A DNA stretch of 64,000 bases from Escherichia phage KEP3, in sequence record PP047753; one strand, written 5' to 3'. Positions 49,691 to 51,106 of the stretch are shown here, in pieces (within the stretch, counting starts at the first letter, position 1; each line of letters begins with the position of its first letter). Made by a program: the position numbers and the translations under genes. Below the pieces are notes generated by a model. It was not told the origin of the DNA. It made no database searches and saw only the letters and a program-made list of their open reading frames with translations.

Positions 49691-51106
49691 TTACCAGATG
49701 TAACGGTCAATCATTACTGCTTTGAGCATTACGCTGATTGGGTCAAACTTCTCACCACCAAGCAGAGCTTTTAAAGTGGATGGAGAGAACCCTGATACCA
49801 TCGCTACACCATTATCCTTAACAGATACTTCGCAAGTACCATTACGGTTTGCTAAGTACCAGAATACTAGTTGTGGCATTTCGTATCCAGCTTTTTTGTA
49901 CTTACTCTGAATTGCTTCAAAGTTTGTACGACCATTTGCACCATCAACCTGATTAAACTCCATATCAGAGAAGATAATAAGCTTACTTGGCATATCTTTC
50001 TGAGTCAAGTTGTTTCGCTTACCTACCTCAAGAATGCGGTCAAAAGCTGCTTGTAAGTTAGTTGAGCCATATTCAACATGACGCATCACCTGACGATGAC
50101 GGTTTCGTAAATCACCACTCAGTTCGATGAAGTGAGGGTTTGTTGAATAAACCATTAACTCATTCTTAAAGCAGCCTGTATTGCGTTCTGCTACATACAA
50201 GGCAAGTGATACACCAATATCAAGGGCAGTGATTGAACCAAGATTCACCCAAGACATTGAACTTGAAACATCAGTCATACACAAGATGTTTTCACCTTCT
50301 GCCATCCAGTTTGGTAGTGCTTTCCACTGCTCATTAGCAACATCTGCATTACCATACTTGATAGATTTAATCACATCGTATGGGTAAACAGCACCAGCGT
50401 TAATCTTAGTCTCACCTTTGGATAAGGACTCAATGTAAGCTTTGTAGCGTTCTCCATCTTTACGGTTAAAGAGTTTTTGGTAACGTGCAGCAGCGAGTGA
50501 AGGAATCTTGCTGTAGTCAATCTTACCGAACTCATTAGCAGAGATTTTTTGCTCAACCGTATCAGAAAGTGCAGACAACAGTGTGCGGTACTCTTTCTCA
50601 CTTAAGTTAGCAAACTTGCAGAAACGTTTTACAAACTGTTTGTGTCGTGGTTTTACTCGTGGTAACCACTTGGCTGCCAAACCTGCTGTTTCAGGGTCTA
50701 GTAATGCTGCTTCTAAATGTTTGAAGGCATCTGTCTCAAAACGAGTACCTACAAAGATTTTGAAGTCATCAAAACGACCAAGTTCTGCAATCTTATCCAT
50801 AATACGAAGAACCTGTGTAGGCTCTAAAACTTTATCTTCGATTGCTTGAAGTAAAACAGTTCTGAAGGCTTTACGCTCACCCATACCTTCTCGTACATCT
50901 CGCATGTGAAGCAAAATACGAACTGCAACATCAACATCCTCACGCAAAGCTTTGTAGAACAGGTCTGGTAAGATTTCTACATTGCTACGGCTTGAGCCAG
51001 CGGCTTTGTAGAAGTCTACCAGAGAAGACATTGATGAAGTATGGTTTACAGCACCATTTTCAGTTCGACCTGCATGAAGGTGCGCATGTTTAAATAATTC
51101 GCTCAT
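49691..51106 (-). CDS. vWA-domain protein with helical N-terminal domain (possible TROVE/Ro60-like architecture)
   Basis: MIDAS-like DVSSS motif at about residue 276; helical N-terminal ~270 aa; directly upstream of tRNA array. Confidence 0.55.
   Translation of the reverse strand: MSELFKHAHLHAGRTENGAVNHTSSMSSLVDFYKAAGSSRSNVEILPDLFYKALREDVDVAVRILLHMRDVREGMGERKAFRTVLLQAIEDKVLEPTQVLRIMDKIAELGRFDDFKIFVGTRFETDAFKHLEAALLDPETAGLAAKWLPRVKPRHKQFVKRFCKFANLSEKEYRTLLSALSDTVEQKISANEFGKIDYSKIPSLAAARYQKLFNRKDGERYKAYIESLSKGETKINAGAVYPYDVIKSIKYGNADVANEQWKALPNWMAEGENILCMTDVSSSMSWVNLGSITALDIGVSLALYVAERNTGCFKNELMVYSTNPHFIELSGDLRNRHRQVMRHVEYGSTNLQAAFDRILEVGKRNNLTQKDMPSKLIIFSDMEFNQVDGANGRTNFEAIQSKYKKAGYEMPQLVFWYLANRNGTCEVSVKDNGVAMVSGFSPSTLKALLGGEKFDPISVMLKAVMIDRYIW

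Follow-up and report, generated by a model that had tools for sequence, protein, structure and literature searches.

A Ro60-like protein gene and candidate Y-like RNAs in the tRNA region of Escherichia phage KEP3

Particles of Ro60 and Y RNA, a major autoantigen, are conserved between organisms as far apart as bacteria and humans, and their bacterial and viral roles are poorly understood. Ro60 binds Y RNA on the outer surface of its ring and takes the 3' ends of misfolded RNAs into its central cavity. In the known systems the RNA gates this cavity, and its tRNA-like module recruits tRNA-recognising enzymes or tethers an exoribonuclease (polynucleotide phosphorylase, PNPase); YrlA, for example, is bound by the Ro60 ortholog, modified by TruB and DusA, and cleaved by RNase P. 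Here we describe a stretch of 64,000 nucleotides (nt) from Escherichia phage KEP3 (sequence record PP047753; the window in what follows), in which the gene for a protein with a predicted Ro60 fold lies beside a tRNA array that contains four candidate Y-like RNAs, one of which resembles YrlA.

YrlA is defined by V, T, acceptor-stem (AS) and D stem-loops with a YUAY element before V, and by the sequence GNCGAAN0-1G near its 5' end, which is thought to be the Ro60 contact (PMC4201824). In Thermus phage phiLo a canonical Ro60 binds adjacent Y-like RNAs (Yrl1/Yrl2), which were found via their CGAA motif, and recruits PNPase (PMC12135203; PDB 9KOP, 9L5Y). The protein studied here has an ortholog in Escherichia phage JohannRWettstein (Bas63; MZ501086), the 471-amino-acid gp130 (bas63_0130), with identical synteny. 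According to the PhageMaP preprint (10.1101/2024.10.10.617714), Bas63 gp130 is highly Ro60-like in structure and its gene lies directly upstream of tRNAs; its deletion cripples Bas63 on hosts with the ppl defence, gp130 by itself, expressed from a plasmid or placed in the T7 genome, lets T7 plate again on ppl hosts, and some of the annotated tRNAs were guessed to be Y RNAs. Mycobacteriophage relatives, 31-34% identical, are annotated as 'Ro-like RNA binding protein', and one of these, LeBron gp53 (472 amino acids), is moderately toxic on overexpression. The Ro60 resemblance of this gene is therefore already known from the preprint and is not novel. No paper in the literature that we searched names an RNA partner of this protein family. 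The RNA class described below is real, i.e. conserved, structured and linked to the gene, and it appears to be new to the literature.

The window comes from the genome of a Felix O1-like phage (Felixounavirus), and over 7 kb around the locus it shares 93-97% identity with dozens of Escherichia and Salmonella phages. The gene and the array are arranged as follows.

49691..51106, minus strand: gene for the Ro60-like protein; ATG start, 471 amino acids, Pfam DUF2828 and DUF7788, ortholog of Bas63 gp130.
43756..49525, minus strand: tRNA array; 26 canonical tRNA genes with Y-like units embedded (ARAGORN and Rfam).

The first-pass annotation, made from the sequence alone, had described this gene and placed it directly 5' of the tRNA array. 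The open reading frame (ORF) was found exactly so, and tRNA-Pro (49525-49446), the first of the 26 same-strand tRNAs, starts 166 nt past its stop codon. When the array is read on the minus strand, a motif pair recurs, AGAAGACCnnUUnCAGCAA and GGUCUGG, each pair bracketing a spacer between tRNAs. The first motif of the pair, which contains ACAGCAA, has four matches in the window and none elsewhere there, compared with 0.07 expected by chance. Four units were delimited in this region, three short and one long.

49281..49353, minus strand: short Y-like unit 1, between tRNA-Glu and tRNA-Met; stem AGACCAA/UUGGUCU, ACAGCAA, AU-rich interior; covariance model 36 bits, strict motif scan.
49123..49186, minus strand: short Y-like unit 2, between tRNA-Met and tRNA-Asn; stem AGACCGU/ACGGUCU, ACAGCAA; covariance model 39-40 bits, strict motif scan.
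48627..48702, minus strand: short Y-like unit 3, downstream of tRNA-Asp; stem AGACCAA/UUGGUCU, motif UUCAGCAA; second covariance model (R2) 32.5 bits, strict scan.
48482..48613, minus strand: YrlA-like RNA (unit 4), 132 nt; minimum free energy (MFE) fold, covariance models 123 and 103 bits.

The units lie 338-1209 nt past the stop codon of the gene, on its strand, and 6-13 nt from the flanking tRNAs. In the Bas63 record units 1 to 4 correspond to 82068-82140, 82235-82298, 82690-82763 and 82777-82908. Units 1-3 have ends like those of unit 4 and AU-rich interiors of only 30-45 nt; unit 3 was picked up by the motif search with one mismatch. In the MFE fold of unit 4 the two ends form a long terminal stem that closes a multiloop with four hairpins, and its parts, again on the minus strand, are these.

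48609-48602 with 48491-48484, minus strand: P1 closing stem.
48600-48594, minus strand: ACAGCAA.
48591-48587 with 48505-48501, minus strand: probable P2.
48578-48562, minus strand: V hairpin.
48557-48541, minus strand: T-arm, GAAGG-UUCGAUU-CCUUC, with loop UUCGAUU.
48540-48523, minus strand: closed 7-base-pair acceptor-like hairpin with a 4-nt AGAU loop.
48520-48506, minus strand: D-arm, GUGU-AAUGGUA-GCAC.

Unit 4 is thus a circularly permuted tRNA, i.e. its acceptor stem is closed and its ends exit where the anticodon arm would be, at which point the P2 and P1 stems are found. The first-pass annotation had nominated three non-canonical elements in the array, and all three exist, although only one of them belongs to the family defined by this signature: the supposed tRNA 3' fragment at 48533-48600 is really the middle of the 132-nt RNA at 48482-48613, with its permuted tRNA-like domain. 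The three short units and the shared ACAGCAA motif were absent from that annotation.

Several simpler identities for unit 4 were tried and rejected. It is not a canonical tRNA, given that ARAGORN makes no tRNA call at 48482-48613, the acceptor stem is closed and there is no anticodon arm; the Rfam tRNA model scores 22 bits on it, below the gathering score of 29. Nor is it a permuted (two-piece) transfer-messenger RNA (tmRNA), as ARAGORN calls no tmRNA, the Rfam tmRNA_permuted model does not match and there is no tag ORF inside. The sequence GGCGAAG at the V/T junction was considered as a canonical YrlA motif and dismissed because it is not conserved (L004 and L010 of the survey below have GGAGAAG). 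In Bas63, two small minus-strand 'hypothetical proteins', bas63_0137 and bas63_0138 (L081 22749-23023; Bas63 record 82748-83022), are annotated over units 3 and 4 and the 142-nt element described later, and are probably artefacts of ORF calling across genes for RNA; the units of a Staphylococcus phage are likewise overlapped by a tiny ORF (L084 6471-6560).

Among the known systems close to this arrangement is Rsr with YrlA in Salmonella and Mycobacterium smegmatis (PMC4201824). In both there is a protein with a ring and a vWA domain, and an RNA beside its gene on the same strand, and the RNA has a terminal stem, a YUAY-like element preceding V, and a tRNA-like domain whose stem-loops run V, T, closed acceptor stem, D. 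The window units also lie, as YrlA does, on the same strand within ∼4 kb of the Ro60 gene. However, the phage protein belongs to DUF2828/DUF7788 rather than to Pfam TROVE, the 5' motif is ACAGCAA rather than GNCGAAN0-1G with no match to an Rfam family, each phage locus has several short units without a tRNA domain, the RNAs of the window lie inside a tRNA array, and rtcBA is not adjacent, a Listeria phage excepted. The phiLo system differs in that its Ro60 is a TROVE protein recognisable by sequence with CGAA RNAs, whereas the family described here is divergent and has another RNA motif. In the Rsr-Yrn1-PNPase complex of Deinococcus radiodurans (RYPER) both the RNA motif and the protein family are different, and PNPase is tethered in RYPER, whereas at the phage locus an exoribonuclease is only a possible partner of the tRNA mimic. 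Finally, in contrast to the proposal of the Bas63 preprint, the candidates described here are unannotated spacers (one of them overlapping the dubious ORF bas63_0137) rather than annotated tRNAs, and are defined by motif, structure and conservation across phyla.

Comparison of unit 4 with its homologs revealed extensive covariation. Close relatives show no variation in the T-arm, the D-arm and the end motifs, whereas their changes in the closed acceptor-like stem are perfectly compensated (ACUCG/CGAGU, ACACG/CGUGU and ACCCUUC/GAAGGGU). Across 19 distinct full-length homologs, 93.9% of the cells hold standard pairs, compared with 61.3% after column shuffling and 37-50% with slid partners; 21 of the 24 pairs vary on both sides, including all eight pairs of the closing stem and all seven of the acceptor-like stem, and G-U pairs occur. 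The covariation score was 0.78 against 0.21 for shuffled alignments, with none of 500 shuffles reaching it and covariation present in all four helices; a 20-sequence set gave similar values. P2 (UUACU/AGUAA) and the V hairpin were omitted from the model because their columns were inconsistent, and P2 is conserved in sequence with little covariation. The slid controls and the independent motif scan described below are free of model fitting. As judged from the alignments, the G-U pairs argue for selection at the RNA level. DNA-level explanations (a hairpin promoter or a mobile repeat) were rejected, since G-U pairs occur, the module keeps strictly to the strand of the gene and its interiors measure 30-110 nt.

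We then surveyed 80 loci with relatives of the protein, taken from IMG/VR (15 close, 65 distant at 39-46% identity). The first covariance model was seeded with four sequences from two lineages and R2 was built from 20 diverse matches; MAFFT alignments of the distant units were abandoned because the D-arm and the 3' halves were misaligned, and the four-sequence seed with covariance-model alignment was used instead. The first model gave 66 matches at E<=1 in 1.19 Mb, all of them on the strand of the gene, and the same was true of 66 of 66 matches to R2 at E<=0.1. Independently of the models, the loci were scanned for the pattern AG and 5 nt, then 1-3 nt, CAGCAA, 15-210 nt, the complement and CUG. 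It occurred 121 times on the strand of the gene and never on the other strand, with 0.6 occurrences in shuffled sequences, and 57 of the 80 loci had at least one. Among the distant loci, 42 of 65 had a strict instance, and 34 of 58 instances were within 500 nt of the gene; relaxed rules added ∼10 further loci, some with the terminal pair flipped to UG...CA and some with CCGCAA in place of CAGCAA; CUGCAA is another variant of the motif. The design of the RNA is the same in the distant loci, with closing stems that are entirely different yet complementary: (U/A)ACAGCAA stands directly 3' of the 5' strand of the closing stem, opposite an A/U-rich 3' stretch (often AAGUAAU). For many loci with the module (L023, L026, L029, L030, L032, L035, L037, L038, L041 and L072) the nearest 8 kb hold no tRNA; the module therefore follows the gene rather than tRNA arrays. 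Phages of Mycobacterium (Archie), Listeria (LMSP-25), Staphylococcus and Campylobacter, whose proteins are 29-37% identical, have two or three tandem units immediately before or after the gene, all with (U/A)ACAGCAA and with 16 of 16 model matches on the gene strand. The middle unit of Archie is a full tRNA-like version (63 bits, E 1e-10), and tandem arrays of 3-6 units are found in L018 and in Archie, Listeria and Staphylococcus phages.

The tRNA region of phage T5 was used as a control. Small stable RNAs without known function lie among its tRNAs (RNA1, RNA2, RNA3 and others), as the units do here; however, this region of 25 tRNAs has no Ro60-like gene, gave no strict motif match, and matched the covariance model only twice and weakly, both times at ordinary tRNAs. 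In the T5 record (L086 30284-33949) several of the annotated stable RNAs between the tRNAs are tRNA-like, with no match to the module.

Some units of the survey depart from the common design. In L075 (10325-10429) the closing stem and CAGCAA frame a tRNA-like domain that is not permuted (D-arm, anticodon-like arm, T-arm) and that adjoins a permuted unit; both topologies therefore occur within one locus, which echoes the difference between YrlA and Yrn1 remarked on by Chen et al. 2014 (PMC4201824). Three phages of ∼225 kb (L039 11816-12208, L048 12001-12232 and L060 11601-11967) have tRNA-shaped RNAs with an open acceptor and a large insertion at the anticodon position that contains CCGCAACAAA or CUGCAAUAAA, which may represent a third way to join motif and tRNA body. 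The loop of the acceptor-like stem often opens with NCCA (GCCA, CCCA or ACCA) in the units of L012, L018, L033 and L075, while the window unit has the 4-nt loop AGAU; the NCCA is a fossil tRNA 3' end that fits an origin in tRNA genes and may allow recognition by RNase P or the CCA enzyme. In L008 (10456-10577), a close relative, the tRNA-like unit is truncated by an apparent recombination of its T-loop with that of tRNA-Lys, and the deletion takes away the remainder of the unit together with the 142-nt element and a portion of tRNA-Lys; at least one isolate is thus viable without the full-length unit. Extra copies of AAGCAA are present in the AU-rich interiors of the short units of L026, L041 and L052 and in the UUAAGCAA hairpin loop at 48370-48390 (minus strand) of the window, and may be additional single-stranded contacts for the protein.

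The protein itself was analysed by sequence and by structure prediction. Pfam hmmscan assigns its C-terminal 180 residues to DUF7788 (E 1.6e-43) and its N-terminal part to DUF2828 (E 6.1e-29), and PHROGs places it in phrog_850, labelled 'RNA-binding protein'; NCBIfam gave no match to the 471-amino-acid sequence. The family is large. Of the candidates scored, 2663 database clusters reach E<=1e-5, and tblastn finds relatives in 709 phage genome records. In an alignment of 62 family members the residues of the metal-ion-dependent adhesion site (MIDAS; D279, S281, S283, T349 and D381) are invariant, as is a basic motif in the helical domain, R69-D-x-R-x-G-x-G-E-R78. An AlphaFold2 model from this alignment (pLDDT 89.1, pTM 0.88) is all-helical to about residue 263 and has an alpha/beta vWA fold from residue 274, i.e. 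the model has the overall Ro60 fold, with an N-terminal helical domain of HEAT repeats that would form the ring (∼265 residues) and a C-terminal vWA domain. When the model was compared with the PDB by Foldseek, the ten best matches were all Ro60/TROVE structures aligned over the full length (E 6e-9 to 9e-8, TM 0.54-0.66, 14-16% sequence identity), and the matches after these were isolated vWA domains only. By sequence the link to Ro60 is weak. A profile comparison by hhalign with Ro60 (human, Xenopus and Deinococcus sequences) gave a probability of 83.8% and an E value of 7.9e-6 over 205 columns, pairing residues 229-454 with 302-527 of Ro60, for a Ro60 profile of only three sequences; the aligned region comprises the last TROVE helix (VYPYDVI opposite IHPFHIL) and the vWA domain (DVSSSM opposite DVSASM of Ro60). 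The model and the invariant residues bear out what had been described from the sequence alone, a helical N-terminal region of ∼270 residues followed by a vWA domain with a MIDAS. Of the further proposal that the N-terminal region is of the TROVE type, the fold is retained by structure prediction and the Pfam assignment is not, DUF2828/DUF7788 being found instead. The protein is thus predicted to have a Ro60 fold while being unrecognisable by sequence as a member of the TROVE family.

We consider that this locus is a divergent phage version of the Ro60-Y RNA ribonucleoprotein (RNP), with a probability of about two in three. The earlier suggestion of a phage Ro60-like protein with Y-like RNAs gains support from the presence of a YrlA-style RNA and three shorter relatives downstream of the gene, and from the same design in distant phages. 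The predicted fold, the RNA structure with its covariation and the association of gene and RNA are the observed parts of this interpretation, from which we infer RNA binding by the protein, processing of the RNAs and an effector role. In this scheme the protein would be a ring of HEAT repeats closed by the vWA/MIDAS domain, which probably binds structured or misfolded RNA in the manner of Ro60, and its four cognate small RNAs would most likely be co-transcribed with the tRNAs. With 6-13 nt between the units and the neighbouring tRNAs, the cuts made by RNase P and in 3'-end maturation of those tRNAs would set the units free. The closing helix and the invariant ACAGCAA would form an asymmetric internal loop and serve as the docking site for the protein, the counterpart of the bulged helix (GGUCCGA/GNCGAA) by which canonical Ro60 holds Y RNAs. 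The short units would then be minimal Y-like RNAs, and the tRNA mimic of unit 4 may be an effector module for tRNA-recognising enzymes or an exoribonuclease (cf. Rsr-YrlA and phiLo). Such a phage RNP might redirect or protect RNA metabolism during infection, perhaps by keeping the phage's tRNA transcripts under quality control and by acting in counter-defence. Because gp130 counters ppl without phage RNAs, the RNAs may modulate, gate or extend the activity of the protein rather than being essential to it.

A number of results weigh against this interpretation. The Pfam TROVE model (PF05731) has no match in the protein at E<=1 by hmmscan, a hidden Markov model of the family searched against PDB sequences finds no Ro60 chain at E<=10 (a single-sequence search of PDB sequences likewise gave no Ro60 link), and the N-terminal 228 residues are unaligned by hhalign, so that the link to Ro60 there comes from the predicted structure only. 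On the RNA side, the covariance search of 43500-51800 with Rfam 15 (gathering thresholds, and E<=10) returned only matches to the tRNA clan and chance matches, with none to the Y RNA or YrlA models that the first-pass annotation had proposed for this check, and the canonical Ro-binding motif GNCGAA is absent from the units, with ACAGCAA in its place. The covariation alignments were fitted to the model, which somewhat inflates pairing; about 15 of the 65 distant loci have no module in their 8-kb flanks, and some modules are 6-8 kb away from the gene. Since gp130 alone restores plating, phage RNAs are dispensable for counteracting ppl. Lastly, the binding of these units by the protein and their accumulation as stable species rest on inference. 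For a separate Ro60 lineage, a divergent protein would be expected together with a correspondingly different RNA motif.

The most serious competitor, which we nevertheless regard as unlikely, is that the modules are sites acting in cis on longer transcripts, i.e. autoregulatory operators in messenger RNA or elements that organise or chaperone the processing of tRNA precursors. The positions of some modules would suit a translational operator, since they end 14-18 nt before the start codon of the gene in L020, L021, L022 and L034, or a 3'-untranslated-region element, since they start 24-65 nt past the stop codon in L026, L035, L037, L041, L066 and L077, and the window units are packed tightly between tRNAs. 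However, canonical Y RNAs also lie beside Ro60 and are co-transcribed with it, which makes location uninformative; simple operators would hardly be expected in tandem arrays of 3-6 units or with an elaborate tRNA mimic, and a cis-acting site of this kind would still require the protein to bind the module.

A protein that acts without a dedicated RNA partner, for example by direct inhibition of Ppl through the vWA/MIDAS domain while the RNAs serve some other phage function, is considerably less probable. It would account for the rescue of T7 on ppl hosts by gp130 alone and for the toxicity of LeBron gp53 when expressed alone, and vWA/MIDAS domains are classic modules of protein-protein interaction (integrins, midasin), but it leaves the family-wide and strand-specific linkage of gene and module unexplained; moreover, canonical Ro60 combines RNA-independent with Y RNA-dependent activities, so that the two ideas are compatible. 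Slightly less probable again is that the units are generic constituents of tRNA arrays with no tie to the protein, such as processing hairpins, decayed or rearranged tRNA genes, or stable by-products of the T5 type. Phage tRNA arrays do hold pseudo-tRNAs (46902-46976 in the window) and stable RNAs without known function (as annotated in T5), the NCCA at the start of many acceptor-like loops resembles a fossil tRNA 3' end, and the phage of L008 apparently kept its viability with a truncated unit. This reading is contradicted by the loci that have the module without a tRNA within 8 kb and by its absence from the T5 array, and the conservation of ACAGCAA and the closing stem from phages of Proteobacteria to those of Actinobacteria and Firmicutes, tracking the gene and its strand (121 to 0), also speaks against it.

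The Ro60-type interpretation can be taken further, to a proposal that we hold tentatively, at somewhat less than even odds. DUF2828/DUF7788 proteins occur in at least 709 phage genomes from many host phyla, and the Pfam family includes eukaryotic members; they might constitute a second, very large lineage of Ro60-like RNA chaperones with its own class of partner RNAs, acting as a modular phage RNP for counter-defence and RNA surveillance. The partner RNAs, with their closing stem and ACAGCAA loop, would either stand alone or carry a permuted tRNA mimic, which would recruit, or act as a decoy for, tRNA-directed enzymes of the host. Surveys of Y RNAs have been blind to this family because they started from proteins annotated as TROVE. 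If the interpretation is correct, the known range of Ro60-type RNPs grows by hundreds of phages that are already well studied, among them Felix O1, KVP40-like Vibrio phages, P100-like Listeria phages, Campylobacter phages and cluster L mycobacteriophages, with a new RNA recognition code, ACAGCAA rather than GNCGAA. A candidate RNA component would then be supplied for a protein shown to defeat ppl and improve T7 infectivity, and the speculation that some tRNAs are Y RNAs is replaced by specific, testable molecules with coordinates; the analysis also flags mis-annotated ORFs in GenBank records.

Two further structured elements of the array, both of them nominated in the first-pass annotation, and the promoter-like sites of the region are as follows.

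48335..48482, minus strand: 142-nt structured RNA element that abuts unit 4; closing stem of ∼24 base pairs, three internal hairpins, one with the loop UUAAGCAA.
46043..46128, minus strand: 86-nt structured spacer between tRNA-Thr and tRNA-Val; contains GAAGACCGU, resembling the 5' half of a unit.
51145..51174, minus strand: promoter-like site upstream of the Ro60-like gene, TTGACA-18-TAAAGT; consensus scan, 10/12 matches.
49552..49672, minus strand: two promoter-like sites between the stop codon of the gene and tRNA-Pro (49672-49644 and 49581-49552); consensus scan, 10/12 matches each.

The 142-nt element, which had been given as 48336-48477 with a 12-base-pair terminal stem, proved to be more strongly structured than proposed, with an MFE of -49.2 kcal/mol and z = -6.0. 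It is 93-96% conserved in close relatives and has a structural homolog in L010-L013 with compensatory changes in the closing stem and an inner hairpin. Its relation to the Ro60-like system is uncertain, the loop UUAAGCAA being a faint echo of the Y-like module. The element at 46043-46128 also exists and folds moderately well (z = -3.3), but neither covariance model nor the motif scan detects it, and because it is 94-99% conserved in Felix-like phages it provides no covariation information; from its sequence it may be a degenerate relic of a unit. A match to the strict motif at 45420-45629 was discarded as chance, since it lies inside a 185-amino-acid ORF, has the maximum allowed spacing and is found by neither covariance model. 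The promoter-like sites are suggestive only, 51145-51174 as a promoter upstream of the gene and 49672-49644 and 49581-49552 as candidate promoters of the tRNA and Y-like RNA array; the number of such sites found in the region by the consensus scan is not above the shuffled expectation.

Neighbouring genes differ between phage groups. Next to the Ro60-like gene, on its upstream side and in the same orientation, is the gene for a 123-amino-acid basic protein (51187-51558, minus strand; annotated as DUF5681 in relatives). By tblastn this gene is kept only within the Felix O1-like clade, so that it does not accompany Ro60-like genes in general. As recurrent neighbours, RtcB and polynucleotide kinase were rejected too, each being restricted to its own clade. 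In Listeria phage LMSP-25 (L083 7808-9019) the Ro60-like gene is followed after 1.3 kb by the gene for an RtcB-type 'tRNA-splicing ligase' and preceded by a tRNA array that includes a 'tRNA-OTHER', a layout that recalls the bacterial operon rsr-yrlBA-rtcBA; the RtcB linkage was not found by tblastn in loci other than this one.

Three other features of the window array were noted, all on the minus strand. At 46902-46976 a tRNA-like sequence has a good T-arm and a loop resembling a CCA (Trp) anticodon, with no ARAGORN call and an Rfam tRNA-Sec score of 23 bits only; it is probably a pseudo-tRNA or a non-canonical tRNA-Trp. At 47198-47386 there is a weak match to the Rfam tmRNA model (14.7 bits, E 0.01; tmRNA_permuted 16.6 bits at 47319-47370), within which a frame seen by eye, GCA AAC GAC AAT GTT TTC TGG CAG TAG (ANDNVFWQ and stop), resembles the beginning of a tmRNA tag; there is no tmRNA call by ARAGORN here, and the sequence could be a degenerate tmRNA-like relic of the array. 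Finally, an ORF for a 185-amino-acid HNH-type zinc-finger endonuclease (47602-48159) lies within the array, overlaps the ends of tRNA-Met and tRNA-Ile and is missing from Bas63 at the matching position; such a location is usual for homing endonucleases of phage tRNA regions.

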